Source: Escherichia coli (lineage in GTDB: Bacteria > Pseudomonadota > Gammaproteobacteria > Enterobacterales > Enterobacteriaceae). From it: 64,000 nucleotides of DNA. Both the position numbers and the translations under genes were made by a program. The notes under the pieces are model-generated. The model saw only the letters and a program-made list of their open reading frames with translations. It made no database searches and had not been told where the DNA came from. The stretch lies in assembly GCF_003018255.1 (NCBI RefSeq), contig NZ_CP027440.1; one strand, given 5' to 3'. Below are positions 1 through 60,039 of the stretch, one piece after another (the stretch's first letter is position 1; the number at the start of each line of letters is the position of its first letter).

Positions 1-96
1 TTTAATCTCTTCAACCTTGTCAACGGAATTTTGTGGCTGTTGCTGATGGTTATCTTTTTAAAAGATAAACAGATGGGAAATTCGCACGAAGGGTAA
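1..96 (+). CDS. mdfA: Multidrug efflux MFS transporter MdfA/Cmr, C-terminal fragment only (gene starts upstream of window)
   Basis: Frame 1 from window start reads [31 protein letters not shown] then TAA at 94-96; matches the remembered MdfA C-terminus and its position next to ybjH. Confidence 0.7.
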
Positions 97-99
97 AAA

Positions 100-130
100 A
101 ATGCCTGATTGCTTTGTGCGATCAGGCATT
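100..130. terminator. Hairpin (AATGCCTGAT...ATCAGGCATT) flanked by A-run and T-rich tail, between convergent mdfA and ybjH; probable bidirectional intrinsic terminator
   Basis: Inverted repeat read directly in sequence. Confidence 0.5.
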
Positions 131-136
131 CTCGAA

Positions 137-421
137 TTAATGGTGATGGTCGTCAATCTGGTGTTCGATAACCATCCCTTCACCTACGCTGGCAAGATGG
201 CGAACATAAGGATGCGGGCGGTAAGCCGGAGCTGGCGCAGGAGCCACATAGACGGTTTGCGGCACAGTCGCGACGCTGACCGCTTGTGGAACGCTGACTG
301 AATCAGGAACCACAACCACTTTGTATCCACTCGGCACATCGACGGTGACACTTTGCGCCATCGCCACACCAGTAAAGCCCATTAAAAGCGCGCCCAACAG
401 TAGACAATTTTTCATAATCAT
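137..421 (-). CDS. ybjH: Small secreted protein YbjH (DUF, 94 aa)
   Basis: ORF-track ORF 137..421 (94 aa) with N-terminal signal-peptide-like segment; position between mdfA and ybjI. Confidence 0.75.
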   Translation of the reverse strand: MIMKNCLLLGALLMGFTGVAMAQSVTVDVPSGYKVVVVPDSVSVPQAVSVATVPQTVYVAPAPAPAYRPHPYVRHLASVGEGMVIEHQIDDHHH

Positions 422-505
422 TTCGCCTGAAATAATGCAGCGGGTTAATTTCCGCGAATTATGCAGCCTTCATTCAGGTATTGTGTTGCCGGGCGTGCTG
501 CCGTT

Positions 506-3149: not shown

Positions 3150-3168
3150 TAGATAAATTTTAGACAAC

Positions 3169-3247
3169 AAAAAACCCACCAACCTTGAACCGAAATGGCG
3201 GGGTTGATGGGCTCCACAAAATGGGGACATCAAAGAAAAGCAGTGGC
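3169..3247 (-). ncRNA. rybB: RybB small regulatory RNA (sigma-E dependent, Hfq-binding)
   Basis: Minus-strand sequence GCCACTGCTTTTCTTTGATGTCCCCATTTTGTGGAGCCCATCAACCCCGCCATTTCGGTTCAAGGTTGGTGGGTTTTTT matches the RybB sequence as I remember it, including 3' terminator hairpin and U-run; lies in the rcdA-ybjL spacer as in K-12. Confidence 0.85.
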
Positions 3248-5685: not shown

Positions 5686-5943
5686 TCAGGCGTCCAGATT
5701 CTCTTTCACCCATGCAGCAAAATCGGTATAGCCGCCGATATGTTGCTGATCGACAAAAATCTGCGGCACGGTTTCTACGGGTTTTCCTGCCTTTTGTTGT
5801 AGATCTTCTTTAGTGATCCCTTCCGCACGAATATCTACATACTGATACTGGAAATCATCGCGTTCATTGCTCAATTTCTCAGCCAGATCTTTTGCACGCA
5901 CACAGTAAGGGCAACCCGGACGACCAAAAATAACGGTTTGCAT
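5686..5943 (-). CDS. grxA: Glutaredoxin 1 (85 aa)
   Basis: ORF 5686..5958 trimmed to MQTVIFGRPGCPYC...; CPYC active site visible. Confidence 0.9.
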   Translation of the reverse strand: MQTVIFGRPGCPYCVRAKDLAEKLSNERDDFQYQYVDIRAEGITKEDLQQKAGKPVETVPQIFVDQQHIGGYTDFAAWVKENLDA

Positions 5944-6102
5944 TATTTCTCTCCTCATAGATTTATACCTGTAATGATCACGCTAAAATGTATTCGCTGA
6001 AAGTAGGTTTAACCTGTTGCATTAATTGCTAAAAGCTATAACTGTTAAACACAATACAGTGAAAAGTTTTAGACTGAAGGCTCACTTTGCAGAGGGAAGC
6101 GT

Positions 6103-6390
6103 ATGCGCGCGATCGGTAAATTGCCTAAAAGCGTGTTGATACTGGAATTTATCGGAATGATGTTGCTGGCGGTGGCGCTGCTGTCGGTAAGCGGCTCCCT
6201 GTCGCTGCCTGAGCCATTTTCTCGGCCAGAAGTGCAGATTCTGATGATTTTTCTCGGTGTTTTGCTCATGCTTCCCGCTGCGGTGGTGGTTATTCTTCAG
6301 GTGGCAAAACGTCTTGCCCCACAGCTGATGAACCGTCCACCGCAATATTCACGTTCAGAAAGAGAAAAAGATAATGACGCCAACCATTGA
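6103..6390 (+). CDS. ybjC: Small membrane protein YbjC (95 aa), first gene of ybjC-nfsA-rimK-ybjN cluster
   Basis: ORF 6103..6390; two hydrophobic segments; 17-nt overlap with nfsA start. Confidence 0.7.
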   Translation: MRAIGKLPKSVLILEFIGMMLLAVALLSVSGSLSLPEPFSRPEVQILMIFLGVLLMLPAAVVVILQVAKRLAPQLMNRPPQYSRSEREKDNDANH

Positions 6391-7096
6391 ACTTATTTGT
6401 GGCCATCGCTCCATTCGCCATTTCACTGATGAACCCATTTCCGAAGCGCAGCGTGAGGCGATTATTAACAGCGCCCGTGCGACGTCCAGTTCCAGTTTTT
6501 TGCAGTGCAGTAGCATTATTCGCATTACCGACAAAGCGTTACGTGATGAACTGGTGACGCTGACCGGCGGGCAAAAACACGTAGCGCAAGCGGCGGAGTT
6601 CTGGGTGTTCTGTGCCGACTTTAACCGCCATTTACAGATCTGTCCGGATGCACAACTTGGCCTGGCGGAACAACTGTTGCTCGGTGTCGTTGATACGGCA
6701 ATGATGGCGCAGAATGCATTAACCGCAGCGGAATCGCTGGGATTGGGCGGGGTATATATCGGCGGCCTGCGCAATAATATTGAAGCGGTGACGGAGCTGC
6801 TGAAATTACCGCAGCATGTTCTGCCGCTGTTTGGGCTGTGCCTTGGCTGGCCTGCGGATAATCCGGATCTTAAGCCGCGTTTACCGGCCTCCATTTTGGT
6901 GCATGAAAACAACTATCAACCGCTGGATAAAGACGCACTGGCGCAGTATGACGAACAACTGGCGGAATATTACCTCACCCGTGGCAGCAATAATCGCCGG
7001 GATACCTGGAGCGATCATATCCGCCGAACAATCATTAAAGAAAGCCGCCCATTTATACTGGATTATTTGCACAAACAGGGTTGGGCGACGCGCTAA
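6374..7096 (+). CDS. nfsA: Oxygen-insensitive NADPH nitroreductase NfsA (240 aa)
   Basis: ORF 6374..7096; translation MTPTIELICGHRSIRHFTDEPISEAQREAII recognised as NfsA. Confidence 0.9.
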   Translation: MTPTIELICGHRSIRHFTDEPISEAQREAIINSARATSSSSFLQCSSIIRITDKALRDELVTLTGGQKHVAQAAEFWVFCADFNRHLQICPDAQLGLAEQLLLGVVDTAMMAQNALTAAESLGLGGVYIGGLRNNIEAVTELLKLPQHVLPLFGLCLGWPADNPDLKPRLPASILVHENNYQPLDKDALAQYDEQLAEYYLTRGSNNRRDTWSDHIRRTIIKESRPFILDYLHKQGWATR

Positions 7097-7156
7097 AACC
7101 GCCACGCCGATGTATGATACGCGGGCTTTTGACCAGGTCTGACAGAGAGGTGCAGG

Positions 7157-8059
7157 GTGAAAATTGCCATATTGTCCCGGGATGGAACGCTCTATTCGTG
7201 TAAGCGGCTGCGTGAAGCCGCTATACAGCGCGGTCACCTGGTTGAAATTCTTGATCCGCTTTCTTGCTACATGAACATAAATCCTGCGGCGTCTTCTATT
7301 CACTACAAAGGCCGCAAGTTACCCCATTTTGATGCTGTGATCCCGCGTATTGGTACCGCCATTACCTTTTATGGGACGGCGGCACTGCGCCAGTTCGAGA
7401 TGCTGGGGAGCTATCCGCTCAATGAGTCGGTCGCCATTGCCCGGGCGCGTGACAAATTGCGTTCCATGCAACTGCTGGCGCGTCAGGGCATCGACCTGCC
7501 TGTCACGGGCATTGCGCATTCGCCGGATGATACCAGCGATTTAATCGACATGGTCGGTGGTGCGCCGCTGGTGGTCAAGCTGGTTGAAGGCACGCAGGGA
7601 ATTGGTGTCGTGCTGGCGGAGACGCGCCAGGCGGCGGAAAGCGTGATTGACGCTTTCCGCGGTCTGAACGCGCATATTCTGGTGCAGGAATATATCAAAG
7701 AGGCGCAAGGGTGCGATATCCGCTGTCTGGTTGTTGGCGATGAAGTGGTCGCTGCGATTGAACGGCGGGCGAAAGAGGGCGATTTTCGTTCCAATTTGCA
7801 TCGTGGCGGCGCGGCAAGCGTCGCCAGTATCACACCACAGGAGCGTGAAATCGCGATAAAAGCCGCGCGAACGATGGCGCTGGACGTTGCTGGTGTGGAT
7901 ATTCTGCGTGCTAATCGCGGGCCATTGGTGATGGAGGTGAATGCGTCGCCGGGGCTGGAAGGAATAGAAAAAACCACCGGTATCGACATCGCGGGTAAAA
8001 TGATCCGCTGGATCGAACGCCACGCTACGACGGAATATTGCCTGAAAACGGGTGGTTAG
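7157..8059 (+). CDS. rimK: Ribosomal protein S6 glutamate ligase RimK (ATP-grasp), 300 aa, GTG start
   Basis: ORF 7157..8059; ATP-grasp fold translation; conserved position after nfsA. Confidence 0.9.
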
Positions 8060-8146
8060 TCGCAATCACATTACTGATCATGGTTTTGCCTGCGCTTTTT
8101 GCGTAAGCTGTGCCGGTCTTTTTATCGAAAGAGGTTGTACAAAATT

Positions 8147-8623
8147 ATGACATCGCTGGTCGTTCCTGGTCTGGATACGCTGCGTCAATGGCTCGATGAC
8201 CTGGGGATGAGTTTTTTTGAATGTGATAACTGTCAGGCTCTGCATCTGCCCCATATGCAGAATTTCGACGGTGTCTTTGATGCCAAAATCGATCTGATCG
8301 ATAACACGATCCTGTTTTCTGCCATGGCGGAAGTCCGACCTTCAGCCGTATTGCCGCTGGCGGCGGATTTATCTGCCATCAATGCCAGTTCGCTGACCGT
8401 GAAAGCATTTCTTGATATGCAGGATGATAATCTGCCAAAGCTGGTGGTTTGCCAGTCTTTATCCGTTATGCAGGGCGTAACCTATGAGCAGTTTGCATGG
8501 TTCGTGCGTCAGAGCGAAGAGCAGATTTCGATGGTCATTCTTGAAGCTAATGCCCATCAACTGCTGTTACCGACTGACGATGAAGGGCAAAACAACGTTA
8601 CCGAAAACTATTTCCTCCACTGA
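8147..8623 (+). CDS. ybjN: YbjN (158 aa), putative sensory transduction regulator-like protein
   Basis: ORF 8099..8623 trimmed to ATG 8147 (MTSLVVPGLDTL...). Confidence 0.8.
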   Translation: MTSLVVPGLDTLRQWLDDLGMSFFECDNCQALHLPHMQNFDGVFDAKIDLIDNTILFSAMAEVRPSAVLPLAADLSAINASSLTVKAFLDMQDDNLPKLVVCQSLSVMQGVTYEQFAWFVRQSEEQISMVILEANAHQLLLPTDDEGQNNVTENYFLH

Positions 8624-8898
8624 TAACTCCTTTCGAGTACGCAGTCGCTGCCGCAGTGACTGCGTGCTGCAAAATTATCTGCTATTCTTAACCTTTTCTT
8701 AAAGATTATTTCACTTCTCTTGTGCCGATTTGGCTTTATCACATAGAGCAAATACGCATAAAAATTTGTTAAATACCGTTTTTTAATCCGAGCTATAGTC
8801 TCAAACCCTGGCTAAAGTTATTCTTGCGATGCTTTTATATAGCGAGCAGTGCTGGCCGGGAGAGAGTTCTCTTTTCTTACACCGCGCCGATAAAAAAT

Positions 8899-11323: not shown

Positions 11324-12277
11324 ATGAGTACACTTGAACCTGCTGCCCAGCCCAAACCGCCGGGCGGATTTAAGCTGTGGTTGTCGCAGCTGCAAATGAA
11401 GCATGGGCGCAAACTGGTCATTGCGTTGCCGTATATCTGGTTGATCCTGCTGTTTCTGCTGCCATTTCTGATCGTCTTTAAAATAAGTCTGGCGGAGATG
11501 GCGCGCGCCATTCCGCCTTATACCGAACTGATGGAGTGGGCTGACGGGCAACTGTCCATCACTCTTAATCTCGGTAATTTTCTGCAACTGACTGACGATC
11601 CGCTCTATTTCGATGCTTATCTCCAGTCGCTACAGGTGGCTGCGATTTCGACATTTTGCTGTTTACTGATCGGCTATCCGCTGGCGTGGGCGGTGGCGCA
11701 CAGTAAGCCTTCGACCCGTAATATCTTATTACTACTGGTGATCCTGCCGTCGTGGACCTCGTTTCTGATCCGCGTTTATGCCTGGATGGGAATATTAAAA
11801 AACAACGGTGTGCTGAATAATTTTCTGCTGTGGCTGGGGGTTATCGATCAACCGTTGACCATTCTGCATACCAACCTGGCGGTTTATATCGGCATTGTTT
11901 ACGCCTATGTGCCGTTTATGGTGCTGCCGATCTACACCGCCTTGATTCGTATTGATTATTCGCTGGTGGAAGCGGCACTGGATCTCGGTGCACGACCGCT
12001 GAAAACGTTCTTTACTGTGATCGTGCCGCTGACCAAAGGCGGGATTATTGCCGGATCGATGCTGGTGTTTATCCCGGCTGTGGGCGAGTTTGTGATCCCT
12101 GAACTGCTCGGTGGCCCGGACAGCATCATGATCGGGCGCGTGCTGTGGCAGGAGTTTTTCAATAACCGCGACTGGCCGGTGGCCTCGGCGGTAGCGATCA
12201 TCATGTTGCTGCTGCTAATTGTGCCGATAATGTGGTTTCACAAACACCAGCAAAAAAGCGTGGGAGAACACGGATGA
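11324..12277 (+). CDS. potH: Putrescine ABC transporter permease PotH (317 aa)
   Basis: ORF 11324..12277; multi-span permease. Confidence 0.9.
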   Translation: MSTLEPAAQPKPPGGFKLWLSQLQMKHGRKLVIALPYIWLILLFLLPFLIVFKISLAEMARAIPPYTELMEWADGQLSITLNLGNFLQLTDDPLYFDAYLQSLQVAAISTFCCLLIGYPLAWAVAHSKPSTRNILLLLVILPSWTSFLIRVYAWMGILKNNGVLNNFLLWLGVIDQPLTILHTNLAVYIGIVYAYVPFMVLPIYTALIRIDYSLVEAALDLGARPLKTFFTVIVPLTKGGIIAGSMLVFIPAVGEFVIPELLGGPDSIMIGRVLWQEFFNNRDWPVASAVAIIMLLLLIVPIMWFHKHQQKSVGEHG

Positions 12278-19547: not shown

Positions 19548-19871
19548 ATGCAATTTTCTACAACCCCAACTCTGGAAGGCCAGACCATCGTCGAATATTG
19601 CGGTGTGGTGACCGGCGAAGCGATTTTAGGTGCCAATATTTTCCGTGATTTCTTTGCCGGTATCCGCGATATCGTTGGCGGACGCTCCGGGGCTTATGAA
19701 AAAGAATTGCGTAAAGCGCGGGAGATCGCCTTTGAGGAGCTCGGCGATCAGGCCCGGGCGCTGGGGGCTGATGCCGTAGTCGGTATTGATATCGACTACG
19801 AAACGGTCGGGCAAAATGGCAGTATGCTGATGGTTAGCGTCAGCGGTACGGCGGTGAAAACGCGTCGATGA
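19548..19871 (+). CDS. ybjQ: YbjQ (UPF0145 family, 107 aa)
   Basis: ORF 19548..19871. Confidence 0.8.
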
Positions 19872-20698
19872 GAAGAGTCTTTTGGCTGGTCGCTGTCGCT
19901 CTGTTACTGGCAGGGTGTGCAGGCGAAAAAGGCATTGTCGAGAAAGAGGGATATCAGCTTGATACCCGACGCCAGGCGCAGGCGGCGTATCCGCGCATTA
20001 AAGTGCTGGTTATCCACTACACCGCAGATGATTTTGATAGCTCGCTGGCGACACTGACCGATAAGCAGGTCAGCTCGCATTATCTGGTCCCTGCGGTACC
20101 ACCGCGATACAACGGTAAACCGCGCATCTGGCAACTGGTGCCGGAACAGGAACTGGCCTGGCATGCGGGGATTAGCGCCTGGCGCGGGGCAACGCGTCTT
20201 AACGACACCTCTATTGGCATTGAGCTGGAAAACCGTGGCTGGCAAAAATCATCCGGAGTGAAATATTTTGCCCCGTTTGAACAGGCACAGATTCAGGCGC
20301 TTATTCCGCTGGCGAAAGATATTATTGCCCGTTATCACATCAAGCCGGAAAACGTAGTGGCGCATGCGGATATTGCGCCGCAGCGCAAAGACGATCCGGG
20401 GCTGTTATTCCCCTGGCAACAACTGGCGCAGCAGGGGATTGGTGCCTGGCCGGATGCGCAGCGGGTGAACTTTTACCTTGCCGGGCGCGCGCCGCACACA
20501 CTGGTAGATACCGCATCATTACTGGAGCTTTTGGCGCGCTACGGTTATGACGTTAAACCTGATATGACACCGCGCGAGCAGCGGCGCGTGATTATGGCGT
20601 TCCAGATGCATTTCCGCCCGACGTTATACAACGGCGAAGCGGATGCAGAAACTCAGGCGATTGCCGAAGCGTTGCTGGAGAAATACGGGCAGGATTAG
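19868..20698 (+). CDS. amiD: N-acetylmuramoyl-L-alanine amidase AmiD (lipoprotein, amidase_2 family), 276 aa
   Basis: ORF 19868..20698; lipobox LLAGCAG; overlaps ybjQ stop. Confidence 0.85.
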
Positions 20699-29812: not shown

Positions 29813-29993
29813 GAAAAACCAGTCCTTGCAAAGAAGATTCGAAATGCGCGATGACACACTACTGAAAGCGGAAGGACGAGTAAAGTTGCAATTAAAAGGA
29901 AATGTTATGCATCAGAGGGGGATTTTTAATTCTATATGAGTGTTTAGCATTGTTGCGCTCCTTTCATGTGCAATGCCATATAAAGCCACTGGC

Positions 29994-30040
29994 GCAGGGA
30001 GCGGCCAGTTGCCGCCGCTCCCTGCCCCCCCGGCCTTCGG
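29994..30040 (-). terminator. GC-rich hairpin pair (12-bp stem GCAGGGAGCGGC/GCCGCTCCCTGC, then CCCCG-N5-CGGGG) about 100 nt downstream of aqpZ; possible terminator or structured spacer element
   Basis: Inverted repeats read directly; no strong U-run follows on minus strand, so intrinsic-terminator assignment is tentative. Confidence 0.35.
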
Positions 30041-30132
30041 GGAACGCCTCGGCGATTTTAACGCCACCAACACCCGTGCGGTTTGTAACGTCGAAGATAA
30101 AACCACCAGGGCAGACAACATGCCAATGCTAA

Positions 30133-31253: not shown

Positions 31254-32912
31254 ATGATTCTTGAGCGCGTTGAAATTGTGGGTTTTCGCGGTATCAACCG
31301 TTTGTCGTTGATGCTGGAACAAAACAACGTCCTGATTGGGGAGAACGCGTGGGGTAAATCCAGCTTGCTGGACGCCTTAACCCTGCTGCTATCGCCAGAA
31401 TCAGATCTCTACCATTTTGAGCGCGACGATTTCTGGTTCCCGCCGGGAGATATCAACGGGCGAGAACATCATCTGCATATTATTTTGACCTTCCGCGAAT
31501 CGCTGCCAGGCCGACATCGGGTTCGCCGCTATCGGCCGCTGGAAGCGTGCTGGACGCCATGCACCGATGGTTATCACCGTATTTTTTATCGTCTGGAAGG
31601 GGAGAGTGCGGAAGACGGCAGCGTGATGACACTGCGCAGTTTTCTCGATAAAGACGGACATCCGATTGATGTTGAGGATATTAACGATCAGGCTCGTCAT
31701 CTGGTGCGTTTAATGCCGGTGCTGCGCTTGCGTGATGCCCGTTTTATGCGCCGTATTCGTAACGGCACGGTGCCAAATGTCCCCAATGTGGAAGTCACCG
31801 CGCGCCAGCTCGATTTCCTCGCCCGTGAATTATCCTCACATCCGCAAAATCTCTCTGATGGGCAGATTCGTCAGGGACTTTCCGCAATGGTGCAACTTCT
31901 TGAGCATTATTTTTCTGAGCAGGGAGCTGGACAGGCGCGATATCGTTTAATGCGGCGGCGAGCCAGCAATGAGCAACGAAGCTGGCGCTATCTGGATATC
32001 ATCAACCGGATGATTGACCGACCTGGAGGGCGCTCGTATCGGGTTATTTTGCTCGGCCTGTTTGCTACTTTATTGCAGGCAAAAGGCACATTGCGACTGG
32101 ATAAAGACGCCCGTCCATTGTTGCTGATCGAAGATCCAGAAACCCGTTTACACCCCATTATGCTTTCAGTTGCCTGGCATCTGTTGAATCTTCTGCCCTT
32201 GCAGCGCATTGCCACCACCAACTCGGGTGAGTTACTTTCGTTAACGCCGGTAGAGCATGTTTGCCGACTGGTACGTGAGTCCTCGCGCGTTGCCGCCTGG
32301 CGTCTGGGGCCGAGTGGCTTGAGTACCGAAGATAGCCGACGCATATCCTTTCACATTCGTTTTAACCGTCCGTCATCGCTGTTTGCTCGCTGCTGGCTGC
32401 TGGTGGAAGGGGAAACGGAAACCTGGGTTATCAATGAACTGGCGCGTCAGTGCGGACATCATTTTGATGCCGAAGGAATCAAGGTCATTGAGTTTGCCCA
32501 GTCCGGGCTAAAGCCACTGGTTAAATTTGCCCGCCGAATGGGGATTGAATGGCATGTACTGGTCGATGGCGATGAAGCAGGGAAGAAATATGCCGCTACG
32601 GTACGCAGCCTGTTGAATAACGATCGGGAAGCCGAACGAGAACATTTAACGGCGTTACCGGCGCTGGATATGGAACATTTTATGTATCGCCAGGGATTTT
32701 CCGATGTGTTCCACCGCGTGGCGCAAATCCCGGAAAATATACCGATGAATCTGCGCAAAGTTATCTCGAAAGCGATCCATCGCTCTTCCAAACCCGATCT
32801 TGCCATTGAAGTGGCAATGGAGGCCGGACGTCGTGGTGTGGACTCCGTACCGACGCTGCTGAAAAAAATGTTCTCACGCGTGCTGTGGCTGGCGCGCGGT
32901 CGCGCGGATTAA
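31254..32912 (+). CDS. ybjD: OLD-family ATP-dependent endonuclease-like protein YbjD (N-terminal ABC-type ATPase, C-terminal TOPRIM), 552 aa
   Basis: ORF 31254..32912; Walker A GENAWGKSS at residues ~29-37; C-terminal acidic TOPRIM-like motifs LLVEGETE and VLVDGDEAGK. Confidence 0.85.
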   Translation: MILERVEIVGFRGINRLSLMLEQNNVLIGENAWGKSSLLDALTLLLSPESDLYHFERDDFWFPPGDINGREHHLHIILTFRESLPGRHRVRRYRPLEACWTPCTDGYHRIFYRLEGESAEDGSVMTLRSFLDKDGHPIDVEDINDQARHLVRLMPVLRLRDARFMRRIRNGTVPNVPNVEVTARQLDFLARELSSHPQNLSDGQIRQGLSAMVQLLEHYFSEQGAGQARYRLMRRRASNEQRSWRYLDIINRMIDRPGGRSYRVILLGLFATLLQAKGTLRLDKDARPLLLIEDPETRLHPIMLSVAWHLLNLLPLQRIATTNSGELLSLTPVEHVCRLVRESSRVAAWRLGPSGLSTEDSRRISFHIRFNRPSSLFARCWLLVEGETETWVINELARQCGHHFDAEGIKVIEFAQSGLKPLVKFARRMGIEWHVLVDGDEAGKKYAATVRSLLNNDREAEREHLTALPALDMEHFMYRQGFSDVFHRVAQIPENIPMNLRKVISKAIHRSSKPDLAIEVAMEAGRRGVDSVPTLLKKMFSRVLWLARGRAD

Positions 32913-33901
32913 CCGCGAAACATCGTGGCCATTTGTGGCTGAATAGCGTCGAGCATCTCATAGCGCCGACGGTATTCAGCCCGTTTTTTACTGGCGATTT
33001 CGGCAATCTCTTTTCGTGCTATCTGTGCCGGAAGGCGGTAATGGCGTTCAGCATCACATACGCCGCCAACCGACTCCCAGAACGCGTTGTAATCGGCATG
33101 GATCTTGCCTTCTTTATCACGATAACGCAGGCTGCGGTAAATATGCGTTTCATTGCTGACGGCAATAATCTGCTCTACCTGCAAACGTTGGGCAAACAGA
33201 CAGGCCGCTTCCATCACAAGGCGTTTGGGAAATAGCCCGTGGCAGGCTTTCGTCGCATTCTGGATTTCCTGATGTGGAATTTCCCATTTTGCGCCTTGCA
33301 GTCCGCCAATAAACATTGTTCTTTTCCCCTTATATTCACACAGGGTAAACGTGATCTCTGCCAGAGGAATACCTTCGCTGTTGCGGAACAGGATTGTGCT
33401 GTCACCTTCTTTATCCATTGAGATCATCATGGTCAGCTCAAGCGTGAACTGCTCGCCGTTTTTGCCTTCCAGTTTAGCCAGTTGCAGCCCGGGGGTATTC
33501 AAATATAAGCTGAATTCTTCCGCCGACATACACCCGCGGAGTAACGCATAATGGTAACGTAACGCCTCCAGCAATTGCTTACGGCTAAGATTCGCCGCAA
33601 GGTAAGGGCGATGCAGACGCACAGGCAGTCGCGGCTGGCGCGTTAACAACACATTGAGATTGGGCCAGTGGGAAAGTTCGTTCATCCACTCAACGCTTAA
33701 ACGCGGCATAATCAACGAGCGCAGCAAAAATTTCTGGCGAAAACTACGGCGATGCCAGAATTTACCCGGCCGACACTGTCCACGTGCCAGGCTAAGAAAA
33801 AGTGACAGGCTGCTGAGAGATTCAGATGGCGTAAAGGTCCGTTCAGTTAGCTGCGACATATTCATGAAATCAATGGTTATACATGTCGTCGATTTCACCA
33901 T
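32909..33901 (-). CDS. ybjX: YbjX (DUF535, VirK-like), 330 aa
   Basis: ORF 32909..33901; 4-nt convergent overlap with ybjD stop. Confidence 0.8.
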   Translation of the reverse strand: MVKSTTCITIDFMNMSQLTERTFTPSESLSSLSLFLSLARGQCRPGKFWHRRSFRQKFLLRSLIMPRLSVEWMNELSHWPNLNVLLTRQPRLPVRLHRPYLAANLSRKQLLEALRYHYALLRGCMSAEEFSLYLNTPGLQLAKLEGKNGEQFTLELTMMISMDKEGDSTILFRNSEGIPLAEITFTLCEYKGKRTMFIGGLQGAKWEIPHQEIQNATKACHGLFPKRLVMEAACLFAQRLQVEQIIAVSNETHIYRSLRYRDKEGKIHADYNAFWESVGGVCDAERHYRLPAQIARKEIAEIASKKRAEYRRRYEMLDAIQPQMATMFRG

Positions 33902-34015: not shown

Positions 34016-35131
34016 ATGAAAAAGCGGAAAACCGTGAAGAAGCGTTACGTTATTGCGCTGGTGATAATCATCGTCGGGCTGATTACGTTATGGAGAATTC
34101 TTAACGCACCCGTGCCGACTTATCAGACGCTGATTGTGCGCCCCGGTGATTTACAGCAAAGCGTGCTGGCGACCGGAAAGCTGGACGCGCTGCGTAAGGT
34201 TGATGTGGGCGCGCAGGTCAGCGGTCAGTTGAAAACGCTGTCGGTGGCGATTGGCGATAAAGTAAAAAAAGACCAGCTTTTAGGGGTTATTGATCCTGAA
34301 CAGGCTGAAAACCAGATTAAGGAGGTGGAAGCAACGCTGATGGAGCTACGCGCGCAGCGGCAGCAGGCGGAAGCGGAGCTGAAACTGGCGCGGGTGACGT
34401 ATTCCCGTCAGCAACGTCTTGCACAAACGCAAGCGGTTTCACAGCAGGATCTCGATAACGCCGCGACGGAGATGGCTGTGAAACAGGCGCAAATTGGCAC
34501 CATTGACGCGCAAATCAAGCGCAATCAGGCCTCTCTCGATACGGCTAAAACCAATCTCGATTACACCCGCATCGTTGCCCCGATGGCCGGGGAAGTCACG
34601 CAAATCACCACTCTGCAAGGCCAGACGGTGATTGCCGCACAACAAGCACCGAACATTCTGACGCTGGCAGATATGAGCACCATGCTGGTAAAAGCGCAGG
34701 TTTCTGAAGCGGATGTAATCCACCTGAAGCCGGGGCAAAAAGCCTGGTTTACGGTGCTTGGCGATCCGCTGACGCGCTATGAGGGGCAAATCAAGGATGT
34801 GCTACCGACGCCGGAAAAGGTTAACGACGCTATTTTCTATTACGCCCGTTTTGAAGTCCCCAACCCCAATGGTTTGCTGCGGCTGGATATGACCGCGCAA
34901 GTGCATATTCAGCTCACCGATGTGAAAAATGTGCTGACGATCCCTCTGTCGGCATTAGGCGATCCGGTTGGCGATAATCGTTATAAAGTCAAATTGTTGC
35001 GTAATGGTGAAACACGCGAGCGTGAAGTGACGATTGGCGCACGTAACGATACCGATGTTGAGATTGTCAAAGGGCTGGAAGCGGGCGATGAAGTGGTGAT
35101 TGGTGAGGCCAAACCAGGAGCTGTACAATGA
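34016..35131 (+). CDS. macA: Macrolide efflux periplasmic adaptor (membrane fusion protein) MacA, 371 aa
   Basis: ORF 33989..35131 trimmed to [10 protein letters not shown]; N-terminal TM anchor, coiled-coil region. Confidence 0.85.
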
Positions 35132-40560: not shown

Positions 40561-40964
40561 TGCGAAAAAAAGCTCGTACTTTCGTACGAGCTCTTCTTTG
40601 AATATGGCGGTGAGGGGGGGATTGACTCGCTTCGCTCGCCCTGCGGGCAGCCCACTCACTGTGTTCGTGGTCTGTCCAACTGGCTGCGCCAGTTGTCGAA
40701 CCCCGGTCGGGGCTTCTCATCCCCCCTGGAGTGCAATATGCGAAAAAAAAGCTCGCACTTTCGTACGAGCTCTTCTTTGAATATGGCGGTGAGGGGGGGG
40801 ATTGACTCGCTTCGCTCGCCCTGCGGGCAGCCCACTCACTGTGTTCGTGGTCTGTCCAACTGGCTGCGCCAGTTGTCGAACCCCGGTCGGGGCTTCTCAT
40901 CCCCCCTGGAGTGCAATATGCGAAAAAAAAAGCTCGCACTTTCGTACGAGCTCTTCTTTGAATA
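40561..40964. repeat. Tandem array (~2.25 copies, period 178-180 bp) adjoining serW; each unit contains the 3'-terminal ~19 nt of tRNA-Ser plus the serW terminator hairpin and a ~115-bp GC-rich structured segment
   Basis: Unit starts at 40561, 40739 and 40919 (TGCGAAAAAAAGCTCG..., near-identical copies); TGGCGGTGAGGGGGGGATT (reverse complement of tRNA 3' end) recurs at ~40605, ~40785 and 40965. Confidence 0.85.
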
Positions 40965-41052
40965 TGGCGGTGAGGGGGGGATTCGAACCCCCGATACGTT
41001 GCCGTATACACACTTTCCAGGCGTGCTCCTTCAGCCACTCGGACACCTCACC
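40965..41052 (-). tRNA. serW: tRNA-Ser (anticodon GGA), 88 nt, encoded CCA end
   Basis: Minus strand reads GGTGAGGTGTCCGAGTGGCTGAAGGAGCACGCCTGGAAAGTGTGTATACGGCAACGTATCGGGGGTTCGAATCCCCCCCTCACCGCCA; long variable arm typical of tRNA-Ser; followed by hairpin + T9 terminator. Confidence 0.9.
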
Positions 41053-42554: not shown

Positions 42555-44276
42555 TTACAAACCCTGCTTAAACTGGTAATAACGCCCCTGTCTGGCAAGC
42601 AGTTCTGCGTGAGTACCTTGCTCAATAATTTGCCCGTTGTCCATCACTATTATTTGTTGGAAACGAGAGAGTCCGCGAAGTCGATGGGTGACCATTAACA
42701 CCGTTTTCTCATGCATCATTTCTGCAAGCAATTCAAGGATCTGACTTTCGGTTGTGGCATCTAAGCCTTCTGTAGGTTCATCCAGCAATACCAGCGGCGC
42801 ATTATGTAACAGCGCACGGGCGATAGCCAGACGGCGTAGTTCACCACCGGAGAGCTGGCGTCCGCCTTCACCCAACCAACTGTTGAGACCTGCATCCTCG
42901 AGCAGCTTCTCCAGACCAACGCGACGTAAGATCTCCGCCAGAGCCTCATCACTACTGCCAGGCGAGGCGAGTAACAGATTATCACGCAGCGTGGCGCTAA
43001 ACAGATGCACTCGCTGAGGAACAACGCTGATGGTCTGTCGTAGAGTCGCTTCATTCAGGCTGGCTATGGGGCTACCGTTAAGCAAAATCTCGCCCTGTTG
43101 CGGGTCCCATGCGCGGGTCAGCAGTTGTAACAGTGTTGATTTGCCGCATCCGGTTCGCCCGAGAATCGCTATATGTTCCCCGGCGTTTACCTGAAGAGAA
43201 ATCCCTTTAAGTGCCTGTTGGGATTGCTCCGGATAATTGAATTGAACATCCCGTAACGTCAGCGAAACGCGATCGGCAACACGAGTTTGGGTATCAGGGA
43301 AGGTGACTTCCGGTTTTTGATCCGTTAAGTCAGTGATCCGTACGGCAGAGGCAATGACTTGCCCCAGATGCTGAAATGCACCCGTTACTGGTGCCAGTGC
43401 TTCAAACGCGGCTAACGCGCAGAAGACAAACAGGGCAATTAACGCGCCGGGTTGAGCATTGCCGCCAACGCCGCCAGACGCCATCCACAGCATCAGGATC
43501 ACCGCTAACGCGCCAATGAGCAGCATTATCGCTTGCGACAATGCGGTGAGTTCAGATTGACGACGTTGCGCTTCCAGCCACTGAATTTCTGTATTCTCTA
43601 ATTGCGTGCGATAACGATCGCTGGCACCAAAGATGGTCAGCTCAGCTTGCCCTTGCAGCCAGGCCGTCAGTTGTTGGCGATACTGCCCGCGAAGATGAGT
43701 CAGATTTTGCCCGGTGCTTTTTCCCGCACGATAAAACAGTGGTGGCATAAGGAAAAGCGTCAGTAACATAATGCCGCCCAGCGTAAAGGCGAGGGTGAAA
43801 TCAAGGAAACTTAACCCGATTGTCACCACCATAATCACCACAAAAGCGCCCACCAGCGGCGAGATAACGCGCAGGTAAAGATGATCGAGCGTATCAACAT
43901 CCGCCACCACGCGGTTGAGCAATTCGCCCTGACGATAGCGCGCCAGTCCGGCAGGGGAGAGGGGCAGCAATTTGCTGAAGGTATAAATGCGCAGATGCTG
44001 CAACACGCGGAAAGTCGCGTCGTGACTTACCAGACGTTCAAAATAGCGCCCGGCAGTACGGGTGATTGCTGCACCACGCACGCCCGCAGCGGGTAGCATA
44101 TAGTTGAAGCTGTACAGTCCGGCAACCCCCGCTACCGCTGAGGCCGAGAGGAACCAGCCGGAAAGTGTCAACAGACCGATACTGGCGAGCAGCGTGACAA
44201 TTGCCAGCACAATACCAAGACTTAACATCCATTTATGACGTTTATACAGTGCCAGATAGGGTAGCAAAGCGCGCAT
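42555..44276 (-). CDS. cydC: Cysteine/glutathione ABC exporter subunit CydC (573 aa)
   Basis: ORF 42555..44276; N-terminal TM domain, Walker A GRTGCGKST, signature LSGGELRR. Confidence 0.9.
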   Translation of the reverse strand: MRALLPYLALYKRHKWMLSLGIVLAIVTLLASIGLLTLSGWFLSASAVAGVAGLYSFNYMLPAAGVRGAAITRTAGRYFERLVSHDATFRVLQHLRIYTFSKLLPLSPAGLARYRQGELLNRVVADVDTLDHLYLRVISPLVGAFVVIMVVTIGLSFLDFTLAFTLGGIMLLTLFLMPPLFYRAGKSTGQNLTHLRGQYRQQLTAWLQGQAELTIFGASDRYRTQLENTEIQWLEAQRRQSELTALSQAIMLLIGALAVILMLWMASGGVGGNAQPGALIALFVFCALAAFEALAPVTGAFQHLGQVIASAVRITDLTDQKPEVTFPDTQTRVADRVSLTLRDVQFNYPEQSQQALKGISLQVNAGEHIAILGRTGCGKSTLLQLLTRAWDPQQGEILLNGSPIASLNEATLRQTISVVPQRVHLFSATLRDNLLLASPGSSDEALAEILRRVGLEKLLEDAGLNSWLGEGGRQLSGGELRRLAIARALLHNAPLVLLDEPTEGLDATTESQILELLAEMMHEKTVLMVTHRLRGLSRFQQIIVMDNGQIIEQGTHAELLARQGRYYQFKQGL

Positions 44277-46043
44277 TTAAATCTCCTCCTGACGATGGGC
44301 CAGTAATGTGGCGAATGGGCCGCCAGCCACACTTAATTCCGCGTAACGTCCTTGCTCAATAATCTGACCATCCTGCATTACCCAAATGACATCCCAGTCA
44401 GCAAGATCTTCTAACTGGTGGGTGACCATTAACGTTGTCTGGCGCAGAGAGGCGGCATTCAGCGCCTCCATTACGCGCTGTTCACTGTGAGCATCAAGGC
44501 TGGCAGCGGGTTCATCCAACAGTAATAGCGAACAGGGATTTAGTAACGCACGGGCCACCGCCACGCGCTGCGCCTGCCCCACGGAAAGGCGGGCAGCCTG
44601 GTCGCCAACAGGCGTATCAACGCCTTGTGGCAGGAGCGGTAGAAACTCACTGACCCAGGCGTTATCCAGCGCTGTTTGTAACTCGTGTTCGCTGGCATCA
44701 GGTCGTGCCAGTAGTACGTTATCCCGTAGTGTTGCTGCCGGTAATTGTGGGTTTTGCCCAACCCAGGAGAGATGCTTACGCCATGATTCCGGTGATAAAT
44801 CGCGTAATTCTATCCCGTTGATTCGTAGCGATCCCTGATATGAGAGAAAACCAGAAAGCGCGTTCAGCAGTGAGCTTTTACCTGAACCGCTGCGACCAAC
44901 CAACACTGCACGTTGGCCTGCTGGCAAAGTAAAGTTCAGCGGTCCAGCCAGCGTTTTACCTTCTGGTGATGTAATAAACAGATCCTCGGCTTCAATGGTC
45001 ACCGGATCGGTTGATGCTAATTCCGCCTCACCACGTTGCGGATGGGCTAGCGGGGTTTCCATAAACGTTTTCAGACTGTCAGCTGCGCCAACAGCCTGGG
45101 CTTTAGCATGATAAAACGTACCGAGATCGCGTAATGGCTGGAAAAACTCCGGCGCAAGGATCAGGGCCAGAAAACCCGCAGCCAGCGTCACGCCAGTATC
45201 ATAGTGACCAAAATCCAGCTCGCCGAGATAGGAAAAACCAAAGTAGACCGCCACCAGAGCAATTGACAGCGAGGTAAAAAATTCGAGAATGCCGGAGGAT
45301 AAAAACGCCAGCCGTAGCACTTCCATTGTCCGTTGGCGGAAATCTTCCGAAGCAGAACGAATACTTTCAATTTCAGCTTCACCACGACCAAAAATACGCA
45401 ATGTTTCCATGCCGCGCAGGCGATCGAGGAAATGCCCACTTAAGCGAGCAAGAGCGAGAAAGTTACGTCGGTTAGCATCGGCAGCCCCCATTCCAACCAG
45501 CGCCATAAACAACGGAATTAACGGTGCAGTGCCCAGCAGAATAAGCGCCGCAGCCCAGTTAGACGGGAAGATCGCCACCACAATCAGCAAAGGCACGGAC
45601 ACTGCCAGCGCCATTTGCGGCAGGTAGCGTGCATAGTAATCATGCATATCGTCAATTTGCTCGAGTACCAGCGTCGCCCAGCTCCCCGCCGGTTTACCCT
45701 GAATCCACGCTGGCCCTGCTTGTTGCAGACGGTCGAGAACCTGACGGCGGATGGCAAAGCGGATATGCTGCCCGGCGTGATAACCCACCCGTTCGCGTAA
45801 CCAGACCACCCATGCGCGCAGTACAAAGGTCAGAACCAGTAACGTAAAGGGAAGCAGCAGGGCTTCACGGGGAATATTCTCCATAATCATATGTTGCAGA
45901 ATTCGCGCCATGAACCAGGCCTGGGCAATGATCAATATGCCGCTCACAAAGCCCAGCAGACGAGAAATATTCAGCCAACGTTGGGAGATGACGCTTTGCT
46001 GTTTTAACCAGCGGGTTAACTCTTTTTGACGGGATTTATTCAT
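44277..46043 (-). CDS. cydD: Cysteine/glutathione ABC exporter subunit CydD (588 aa)
   Basis: ORF 44277..46043; Walker A GRSGSGKSS; abuts cydC start. Confidence 0.9.
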   Translation of the reverse strand: MNKSRQKELTRWLKQQSVISQRWLNISRLLGFVSGILIIAQAWFMARILQHMIMENIPREALLLPFTLLVLTFVLRAWVVWLRERVGYHAGQHIRFAIRRQVLDRLQQAGPAWIQGKPAGSWATLVLEQIDDMHDYYARYLPQMALAVSVPLLIVVAIFPSNWAAALILLGTAPLIPLFMALVGMGAADANRRNFLALARLSGHFLDRLRGMETLRIFGRGEAEIESIRSASEDFRQRTMEVLRLAFLSSGILEFFTSLSIALVAVYFGFSYLGELDFGHYDTGVTLAAGFLALILAPEFFQPLRDLGTFYHAKAQAVGAADSLKTFMETPLAHPQRGEAELASTDPVTIEAEDLFITSPEGKTLAGPLNFTLPAGQRAVLVGRSGSGKSSLLNALSGFLSYQGSLRINGIELRDLSPESWRKHLSWVGQNPQLPAATLRDNVLLARPDASEHELQTALDNAWVSEFLPLLPQGVDTPVGDQAARLSVGQAQRVAVARALLNPCSLLLLDEPAASLDAHSEQRVMEALNAASLRQTTLMVTHQLEDLADWDVIWVMQDGQIIEQGRYAELSVAGGPFATLLAHRQEEI

Positions 46044-55863: not shown

Positions 55864-55883
55864 TACCCAATTTTTCTGAATCT

Positions 55884-55909
55884 AAAAAGCGCCTGCGGGC
55901 GCTTTTTTT
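55884..55909 (+). terminator. Intrinsic terminator of serS (AAAAAGCGCCTGCGGGCGCTTTTTTTG)
   Basis: GC hairpin followed by T7 run. Confidence 0.8.
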
Positions 55910-56101
55910 GTCTCCCTTTGATACCGAACAATAATTACTCCTCACTTACACGTAATACTACTTTCGAGTGAAAATCTACCTATCTCTTTGATTTTCAAAT
56001 TATTCGATGTATACAAGCCTATATAGCGAACTGCTATAGAAATAATTACACAATACGGTTTGTTACTGGAATCAATCGTGAGCAAGCTTGAGTGAGCCAT
56101 T

Positions 56102-58556: not shown

Positions 58557-59174
58557 ATGACAACCCAGTATGGATTTTTTATTGATTCCAGCCGTTGCAC
58601 CGGTTGCAAAACCTGCGAGCTGGCTTGTAAAGACTACAAAGATTTGACGCCAGAAGTCAGTTTCCGCCGCATTTATGAATATGCTGGCGGCGACTGGCAG
58701 GAAGATAACGGTGTCTGGCACCAGAACGTGTTTGCCTACTATCTGTCGATTTCATGTAACCACTGCGAAGATCCGGCTTGTACTAAAGTCTGCCCGAGCG
58801 GTGCGATGCATAAACGTGAAGATGGTTTTGTTGTGGTCGATGAAGATGTGTGCATTGGCTGCCGTTACTGCCATATGGCTTGCCCGTACGGCGCACCGCA
58901 ATATAACGAAACGAAAGGCCATATGACCAAATGCGATGGTTGTTATGACCGTGTTGCGGAGGGGAAAAAGCCGATCTGTGTTGAATCTTGCCCGCTGCGG
59001 GCGCTGGATTTCGGCCCTATCGACGAGCTGCGTAAAAAACATGGCGATCTGGCGGCCGTTGCGCCGTTGCCGCGAGCTCACTTTACCAAACCGAATATTG
59101 TGATCAAACCCAATGCCAACAGCCGCCCGACCGGGGATACCACTGGCTATCTGGCAAACCCGAAGGAGGTGTGA
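58557..59174 (+). CDS. dmsB: DMSO reductase iron-sulfur subunit DmsB (4x [4Fe-4S]), 205 aa
   Basis: ORF 58557..59174; multiple CxxCxxCxxxCP ferredoxin motifs. Confidence 0.9.
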   Translation: MTTQYGFFIDSSRCTGCKTCELACKDYKDLTPEVSFRRIYEYAGGDWQEDNGVWHQNVFAYYLSISCNHCEDPACTKVCPSGAMHKREDGFVVVDEDVCIGCRYCHMACPYGAPQYNETKGHMTKCDGCYDRVAEGKKPICVESCPLRALDFGPIDELRKKHGDLAAVAPLPRAHFTKPNIVIKPNANSRPTGDTTGYLANPKEV

Positions 59175-59175
59175 G

Positions 59176-60039
59176 ATGGGAAGTGGATGGCATGAATGGC
59201 CGCTGATGATCTTCACGGTCTTCGGGCAATGTGTAGCGGGTGGTTTTATCGTTCTGGCTTTGGCGCTGCTCAAAGGCGACCTGCGAGCAGAAGCCCAGCA
59301 GCGTGTTATTGCCTGCATGTTTGGTTTATGGGTGCTGATGGGCATTGGCTTTATCGCCTCTATGCTTCATCTTGGTTCACCGATGCGCGCCTTTAACTCG
59401 CTCAACCGGGTAGGGGCTTCAGCACTCAGTAACGAAATCGCCAGCGGTTCGATCTTTTTTGCTGTTGGTGGCATCGGCTGGTTGCTGGCAATGCTGAAAA
59501 AGCTGTCACCGGCATTGCGTACGCTGTGGCTGATAGTGACGATGGTTCTTGGCGTCATCTTTGTCTGGATGATGGTGCGTGTGTATAACAGCATTGATAC
59601 CGTTCCGACCTGGTACAGCATCTGGACGCCGATGGGCTTCTTCCTGACGATGTTCATGGGCGGCCCGTTACTGGGTTACCTGTTGCTGAGTCTGGCTGGC
59701 GTCGATGGCTGGGCGATGCGTCTGCTGCCAGCCATTTCTGTACTGGCACTGGTAGTGAGTGGCGTGATGTCAGTGATGCAGGGCGCAGAGCTGGCGACTA
59801 TTCATAGCTCTGTGCAGCAGGCCGCAGCGCTGGTGCCGGACTATGGCGCGCTGATGTCCTGGCGGATCGTGCTTTTGGCTGTTGCCCTGTGCTTGTGGAT
59901 TGCACCACAGCTAAAAGGTTATCAGCCTGCGGTTCCGCTACTTTCTGTATCATTCATTCTGCTTCTGGCAGGGGAATTAATCGGTCGTGGCGTATTCTAT
60001 GGTTTGCATATGACCGTGGGGATGGCTGTCGCAAGTTAA
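59176..60039 (+). CDS. dmsC: DMSO reductase membrane anchor subunit DmsC (287 aa)
   Basis: ORF 59113..60039 trimmed to ATG 59176 after AGGAGG SD; multi-span membrane protein. Confidence 0.85.
   Translation: MGSGWHEWPLMIFTVFGQCVAGGFIVLALALLKGDLRAEAQQRVIACMFGLWVLMGIGFIASMLHLGSPMRAFNSLNRVGASALSNEIASGSIFFAVGGIGWLLAMLKKLSPALRTLWLIVTMVLGVIFVWMMVRVYNSIDTVPTWYSIWTPMGFFLTMFMGGPLLGYLLLSLAGVDGWAMRLLPAISVLALVVSGVMSVMQGAELATIHSSVQQAAALVPDYGALMSWRIVLLAVALCLWIAPQLKGYQPAVPLLSVSFILLLAGELIGRGVFYGLHMTVGMAVAS

Follow-up and report, generated by a model that had tools for sequence, protein, structure and literature searches.

Six short same-strand gene overlaps in an Escherichia coli chromosomal segment and their probable relation to translational coupling

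The E. coli gene ybjC ends inside its downstream neighbour nfsA, and five further pairs of adjacent genes nearby share one or four nucleotides. Does sharing of nucleotides between two genes mean that their translation is coupled? We addressed this question in a 64,000-nt stretch of E. coli DNA (contig NZ_CP027440.1), referred to here as the window. The six overlaps are real, ordinary and already annotated in both K-12 and RefSeq, and there is nothing new in them as such. We consider it likely that the six pairs are genuine short overlaps in known operons, of which the five short ones are most likely coupled and the longest, ybjC/nfsA, leaves nfsA to initiate mainly independently.

Overlaps in a well-annotated region

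Two reference annotations were transferred to the window: the RefSeq (PGAP) annotation of an identical strain, NZ_AP027254.1, and that of K-12 MG1655. All mapped genes have an intact ORF in the window. A 4-kb probe at ybjC/nfsA finds matches in 5419 of 5426 complete genomes, and several E. coli chromosomes agree with it over 100% of positions. The gene order is as follows.

Window, first part: mdfA-ybjH-ybjI-ybjJ-rcdA-ybjL-ybjM-grxA-ybjC-nfsA-rimK-ybjN-potFGHI-ybjO-rlmC-artJ-artMQIP-ybjP-ybjQ-amiD
Window, continued: ybjS-ybjT-ltaE-poxB-hcr-hcp-lysO-aqpZ-ybjD-ybjX-macAB-cspD-clpSA ... dmsABC-ycaC-ycaD-ycaM

The original prediction had named six same-strand overlaps in this region, and all six are present, with lengths of 1, 4 or 17 nt, under both transferred annotations (SD energies refer to the downstream gene; ranks are among 57 genes of the window).

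1321, minus strand: ybjJ/ybjI, 1-nt overlap TGATG, in both annotations
6374-6390, plus strand: ybjC/nfsA, 17-nt overlap ATGACGCCAACCATTGA, in both annotations, in the ORF list and by direct reading of 6200-6560
12274-12277, plus strand: potH/potI, 4-nt overlap ATGA; permease subunits of the putrescine ABC transporter; SD GGGAG, -7.3 kcal/mol
16489, minus strand: artQ/artM, 1-nt overlap TAATG; permease subunits of the arginine ABC transporter; SD GGAGG, -9.5 kcal/mol, rank 6 of 57
19868-19871, plus strand: ybjQ/amiD, 4-nt overlap ATGA, in both annotations
35128-35131, plus strand: macA/macB, 4-nt overlap ATGA; adaptor and ABC subunits of the MacAB-TolC pump; SD AGGAG, -6.6 kcal/mol

Three of the pairs, potH/potI, artQ/artM and macA/macB, encode partners of one complex and belong to what we take to be the operons potFGHI, artPIQM and macAB. 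As had been proposed, the overlaps fit the operons and the start codons of the annotation. PGAP and curated K-12 MG1655 concur at six of six junctions. Because the genes overlap, there is no room for a terminator between them.

The list is complete: 6 of the 39 co-directional adjacent pairs in the window (15.4%) overlap, and no others do. Most prokaryotic groups are reported to have about the same fraction, roughly 15% (PMC6728339). The window is not special, and the overlaps are, as had been anticipated, what the locus should contain. Five of the six lie at -4 or -1, and none at -2, -3 or -5 to -16; prokaryotic genomes are well known to show non-random peaks at precisely these two spacings, -4 and -1 (PMC12548453). 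The pattern is non-random genome-wide, yet neither enriched nor unusual in the window. The -4/-1 stop/start class (NTGA or TRATG) takes in potH/potI, ybjQ/amiD, macA/macB, artQ/artM and ybjJ/ybjI, whereas ybjC/nfsA falls outside it, its start lying 14 nt before the stop codon and in another reading phase.

The next tightest junctions are cydD/cydC (44276-44277; 0 nt between stop and start) and dmsB/dmsC (59174-59176; +1 nt), both missing from the original list; each pair encodes partners of one complex, at a spacing inside the range reported efficient for coupling. Two convergent pairs also share 4 nt, stop to stop, in the window as in the K-12 annotation: amiD(+)/ybjS(-) at 20695-20698 and ybjD(+)/ybjX(-) at 32909-32912. 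Elsewhere the window differs in length from related strains. The lysO-aqpZ spacer (about 29813-30132) is 135 bp shorter than in strain JNE120442 and measures 320 nt against 494 nt in K-12, a difference that is probably one of variable repeat (REP-type) content. In the mdfA-ybjH region (window 1-500), the positional match to JNE120442 fails at the window's very start, and ybjH lies at 137-421 in the window and at 142-420 in JNE120442, indicating an indel there. An Rfam scan of the whole window returned only the four RNA features below, with zero matches at the overlap junctions.

3166-3244, minus strand: RybB sRNA (Rfam), between rcdA and ybjL
40605-40741, minus strand: RtT element (Rfam)
40968-41052, minus strand: tRNA (Rfam), annotated as tRNA-Ser in RefSeq
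55877-56011, minus strand: STnc130 (Rfam), downstream of serS

Start codons of the downstream genes

For each downstream gene, every in-frame ATG, GTG or TTG from the upstream in-frame stop to +150 nt was scored by its pairing with the 3' end of 16S rRNA. No in-frame alternative with a better ribosome-binding site abolishes any of the six overlaps, which is the check that the original prediction had proposed. The annotated start has the best SD among the in-frame candidates in every gene; only in ybjI is there a tie, with a TTG 3 nt upstream of the ATG, and use of this TTG would turn the junction into TTGA, with an overlap of 4 nt rather than 1. The next in-frame start of nfsA is a TTG at +126 that lacks an SD, with no rival nearer, and the annotated ATG of amiD is the sole in-frame start before a GTG at +135.

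Protein comparisons place the N-termini at the same positions. NfsA aligns over residues 1-240 to residues 1-240 of both PDB 1F5V and V. harveyi Frp (1BKJ); YbjI aligns over 1-270 to 1-270 of its paralogue YbiV (1RLM); and MacB aligns over 1-648 to PDB 5NIK, with two MacB orthologues aligning from residues 3-4. In the solved AmiD structure the chain begins at residue 18, which fits a signal peptide at the N-terminus that is encoded from the annotated ATG. PotC aligned to PotI from residue 20 only, and no solved relative of ArtM was found in the PDB. For nfsA, potI and ybjI, protein conservation across genera begins exactly at the annotated ATG. The N-terminus of NfsA was reportedly sequenced when the enzyme was first purified, by Zenno and colleagues in 1996.

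Start codons are the least certain part of bacterial gene calls, and the window itself holds an example: the start of ybjX (32909-33901, minus strand) differs between PGAP (318 aa, start 33865) and K-12 (330 aa, the ATG ORF 32909-33901). One could thus suppose that some true downstream starts lie further 3' and that the genes in question do not overlap. We regard this as extremely unlikely at the six junctions, where PGAP and curated K-12 are identical: none of the in-frame downstream candidates has a better SD, the nfsA +126 and amiD +135 starts would cost the proteins their conserved N-terminal residues or the signal peptide, alignments to homologues and paralogues begin at residues 1-4, and the conservation across genera starts at the annotated ATG. 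That the downstream start codons are the real ones is therefore supported by the SDs, by the N-termini of PDB entries, paralogues and homologues, by conservation (nfsA, potI, ybjI) and by the two annotations.

The ybjC/nfsA junction

The ybjC/nfsA overlap is organized around three features.

6103-6390, plus strand: ybjC (ATG to TGA), the upstream gene, 95 aa, DUF1418 membrane protein (Pfam PF07214, E = 7.5e-42, residues 1-92)
6356-6373, plus strand: initiation region of nfsA, A/G-rich and unstructured, inside ybjC, CAGAAAGAGAAAAAGATA; its AGAGA core is conserved across genera
6374-7096, plus strand: nfsA, the downstream gene, 240 aa, NADPH nitroreductase (ORF list, annotation, PDB 1F5V)

The nfsA ATG occupies 6374-6376 and the ybjC TGA 6388-6390, the latter within nfsA codons Ile5-Glu6; the nfsA frame is +1 relative to that of ybjC. 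A cross-species set was obtained by scanning one genome per species for degenerate DNA sequences that encode the NfsA motif GHRSIRHF. The scan returned 75 loci, 14 of which are enterobacterial nfsA genes (13 by ORF score and that of C. koseri by tblastn); the remaining loci have no NfsA-like ORF. At every one of these loci with a ybjC homologue upstream, the two genes share exactly 17 nt. Such loci come from E. coli, E. albertii, E. whittamii and one further Escherichia species, from six Citrobacter species including C. koseri, and from two S. enterica subspecies. In Enterobacter sp. BIGb0383, nfsA has the same start (MTPTIALLRG) with no ybjC homologue upstream, so that not all Enterobacteriaceae have ybjC and nfsA linked.

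In the cross-species alignment, 4 of 17 columns vary within the overlap, compared with 44 of 75 upstream and 17 of 43 downstream. The ybjC TGA arises from NfsA codons 5 and 6, which read ATT GAA or ATT GAT (Ile-Glu/Asp), Ile5 being always ATT; these residues are part of a TIE/D N-terminal motif that is presumably present in Vibrio Frp too. The YbjC tails (NDANH, DDSNH and NESDH) shift in step with synonymous or conservative changes in nfsA. Because the tail varies in this way, the NfsA constraint dominates in the overlap, and the end of YbjC has the look of passive read-through: ybjC has no stop of its own ahead of nfsA and probably simply continues to the first TGA out of the nfsA frame, which the conserved residues Ile5-Glu/Asp6 (ATT GAN) of NfsA fix in place. 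The invariant ATT at Ile5 could reflect selection to keep the ybjC stop, and could equally reflect shared ancestry together with codon preference.

Of 5386 E. coli records that match the 76-nt junction, 4956 do so with an identity of at least 99%. Separately, the junction (query, window 6345-6420) is without a match in 42 of 5426 complete E. coli genomes, and in strain 21EVA the nfsA part alone (query 34-76) matches, at two places in the record. These observations suggest that the nfsA start is disrupted or deleted in some isolates, possibly in connection with nitrofuran resistance. Two genomes outside E. coli carry a frameshifted nfsA with the 17-nt overlap intact: E. albertii NBRC 107761, where the match splits at about residue 210, and C. 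koseri NCTC10786, where it splits at about residue 202. In both, nfsA is probably a pseudogene.

A programmed +1 frameshift that would fuse YbjC to NfsA is very unlikely. The nfsA frame is open from 6332, and no frameshift signal was seen at ybjC/nfsA. An A-run in ybjC was considered as a slippery site and rejected: GAAAAAG contains five A's and so does not form the heptamer A AAA AAG, and a -1 shift would not lead into the frame of nfsA.

Transcription of nfsA is reported to be driven, within an operon, by the SoxS-regulated ybjC promoter (PMC6375286); PMC11936445, citing Paterson 2002, likewise describes co-transcription from this promoter. A consensus scan of 5900-8800 found 4 promoter-like sites (3.2 expected) and 3 terminator-like sites (3.6 expected), which is chance level and uninformative. 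The sRNA SdsN137 is reported to repress nfsA post-transcriptionally, and repression of ybjC is reported too.

As for translation, the nfsA SD duplex (-2.9 kcal/mol, rank 47 of 57) is at background level, the median for random ATGs being -2.2 kcal/mol; an aSD value of -2.881 is tabulated independently for nfsA (eLife 2017 table, Burkhardt et al. 2017). The initiation region has an opening energy of 3.6 kcal/mol, the second lowest of 57 in the window. The same published table, which includes nfsA and in which ybjC, potH/I and artQ/M are absent, gives nfsA an above-average TE, 1.57, and shows that its DMS Gini near the start is low (Burkhardt et al. 2017, eLife). Given the length of the overlap, the background-level SD, the open leader and the above-average TE, we give about even chances to the proposal that most initiation at nfsA is independent and that its coupling to ybjC is weak at best. 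On this proposal nfsA, co-transcribed from the ybjC promoter, would be translated mainly by ribosomes that initiate independently on an open, A-rich leader. Ribosomes translating ybjC may nevertheless contribute substantially to nfsA translation.

Coupling at the six junctions

The five short junctions have a different character. Their downstream SDs range from -6.3 to -9.5 kcal/mol and lie inside the upstream ORF, compared with a median of -6.2 kcal/mol for the window; random ATGs have a median of -2.2 kcal/mol, and 6% of them reach -6 kcal/mol. The predicted opening energies of artM (17.0 kcal/mol) and potI (13.4 kcal/mol) indicate strongly structured initiation regions, the mean of the other genes being 9.6 kcal/mol; taken together, the genes downstream of an overlap (n=6) do not differ significantly in opening energy from the other genes in the window (n=51; p = 0.34). 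The potH/potI spacing stays at -4 in S. enterica and two Citrobacter species. That of ybjJ/ybjI is -1 (TGATG) in Escherichia and -4 (ATGA) in S. enterica subsp. arizonae, in the same reading phase, and is an example of drift between two common overlap types with the phase kept. With respect to the spacing at which coupling is efficient (about -4 to +3 nt), the five -4/-1 pairs lie inside the range and ybjC/nfsA, at -17, outside it.

Published measurements bear on what such spacings imply. Four of five native E. coli -4 pairs that were tested proved to be coupled, but bioBF did not (PMC6728339), so that coupling of any one pair is not a given. The products of overlapping pairs are often subunits of complexes (PMC10666635). 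The SDs, the structured artM and potI regions, the tested -4 pairs and the tendency of overlapping pairs to encode complex subunits together make coupling of the termination-reinitiation type, the unfolding type or both the most likely reading for potHI, artQM and macAB; for ybjQ/amiD and ybjJ/ybjI coupling is plausible. At these five junctions a ribosome ending the upstream gene would reinitiate on the adjoining start or would unfold the local mRNA for a new ribosome. A linked ratio of products would follow, which would be sensible for the paired permease subunits of potHI and artQM and for macAB, which encodes one pump. Classical reinitiation coupling is doubtful in ybjC/nfsA, which among the six pairs is the least likely to be coupled in this way. 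Our literature search found no experiment on the coupling of these six pairs; for all of them coupling is something we infer, and an overlap should not be equated with translational coupling, as it was in the original prediction.

Other explanations of the same junctions have to be weighed against this reading. All six overlaps might be selected for termination-reinitiation, with nfsA translated only by ribosomes that finish ybjC and scan back about 14 nt. The -17 layout is indeed kept in Escherichia, Citrobacter and Salmonella, with an invariable ATT at Ile5 that creates the TGA; downstream genes with a weak SD can depend on reinitiation (PMC6728339); and PMC12548453 covers two mechanisms, one of which is the reinitiation/ribosome-scanning model. 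The same paper, however, describes coupling in reporters as dropping steeply as the overlap lengthens from -4 to -25 nt and as absent at -25. The nfsA region is moreover open (3.6 kcal/mol) and its TE above average, the same nfsA start is used in the BIGb0383 genome without an upstream ybjC, and the conserved NfsA N-terminus (TIE/D) accounts for the conservation of the overlap. We thus judge it unlikely that strict coupling extends to all six pairs. The 17-nt overlap might alternatively be a regulatory device of the opposite sign, in which ribosomes translating ybjC hinder initiation at nfsA and one sRNA pairing site, such as one for SdsN137, controls both genes. Because ybjC ribosomes cover the nfsA start site, ybjC translation could interfere with nfsA initiation: they would occupy the open nfsA start and terminate 14 nt inside nfsA. 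To such negative coupling we assign only a slim chance.

At the other extreme, the overlaps could be by-products of genome compaction and mutational ease, with no coupling at any junction. That four of five tested native E. coli -4 pairs are coupled (PMC6728339) speaks against this, as do the above-background SDs within coding sequence at the five short junctions, the three pairs that encode partners of one complex and the conservation of potH/potI across genera. Such overlaps do form easily, in that three of the four bases of ATGA come with the ATG itself and an ORF that loses its stop merely runs on to the next one; the drift of ybjJ/ybjI between -1 and -4 and the non-significant comparison of opening energies also agree with a neutral origin. 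On balance we find a wholly neutral origin improbable, and we favour coupling at the five short junctions together with mainly independent initiation of nfsA.

In this well-studied region of E. coli the overlaps confirm where the genes start and which operons they belong to, and have little import beyond bookkeeping. A mildly useful point is that overlap does not equal translational coupling. Expression of nfsA matters for nitrofuran susceptibility, and how its translation relates to that of ybjC and to sRNA control is a small question in its own right.

Compared with known systems, the five short pairs resemble the canonical -4 (NTGA) and -1 (TRATG) coupled pairs (PMC6728339) in strand arrangement, overlap motif, an SD within the upstream ORF and organism. 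They differ from these in that their coupling is predicted from sequence, and in that neither the products of ybjQ/amiD nor those of ybjJ/ybjI are known to form a complex. The ybjC/nfsA pair, listed as -16 in the table of Burkhardt et al. 2017, has its parallel in the dcw cluster, where murE, ddlB and mraY have ORF distances of -13, -7 and -6 (Burkhardt et al. 2017): in both cases an overlap of more than 4 nt lies inside a co-transcribed operon. At 17 nt, however, the ybjC/nfsA overlap is longer than most, its downstream SD is weak, and coupling would be expected to be poor at this distance. The classical examples of coupling by unfolding of mRNA structure are trpBA, atpHA and rplJL (PMC6728339). 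The artM and potI initiation regions are, by thermodynamic prediction only, as strongly structured as that model requires, whereas nfsA, with its open leader, is the opposite case.
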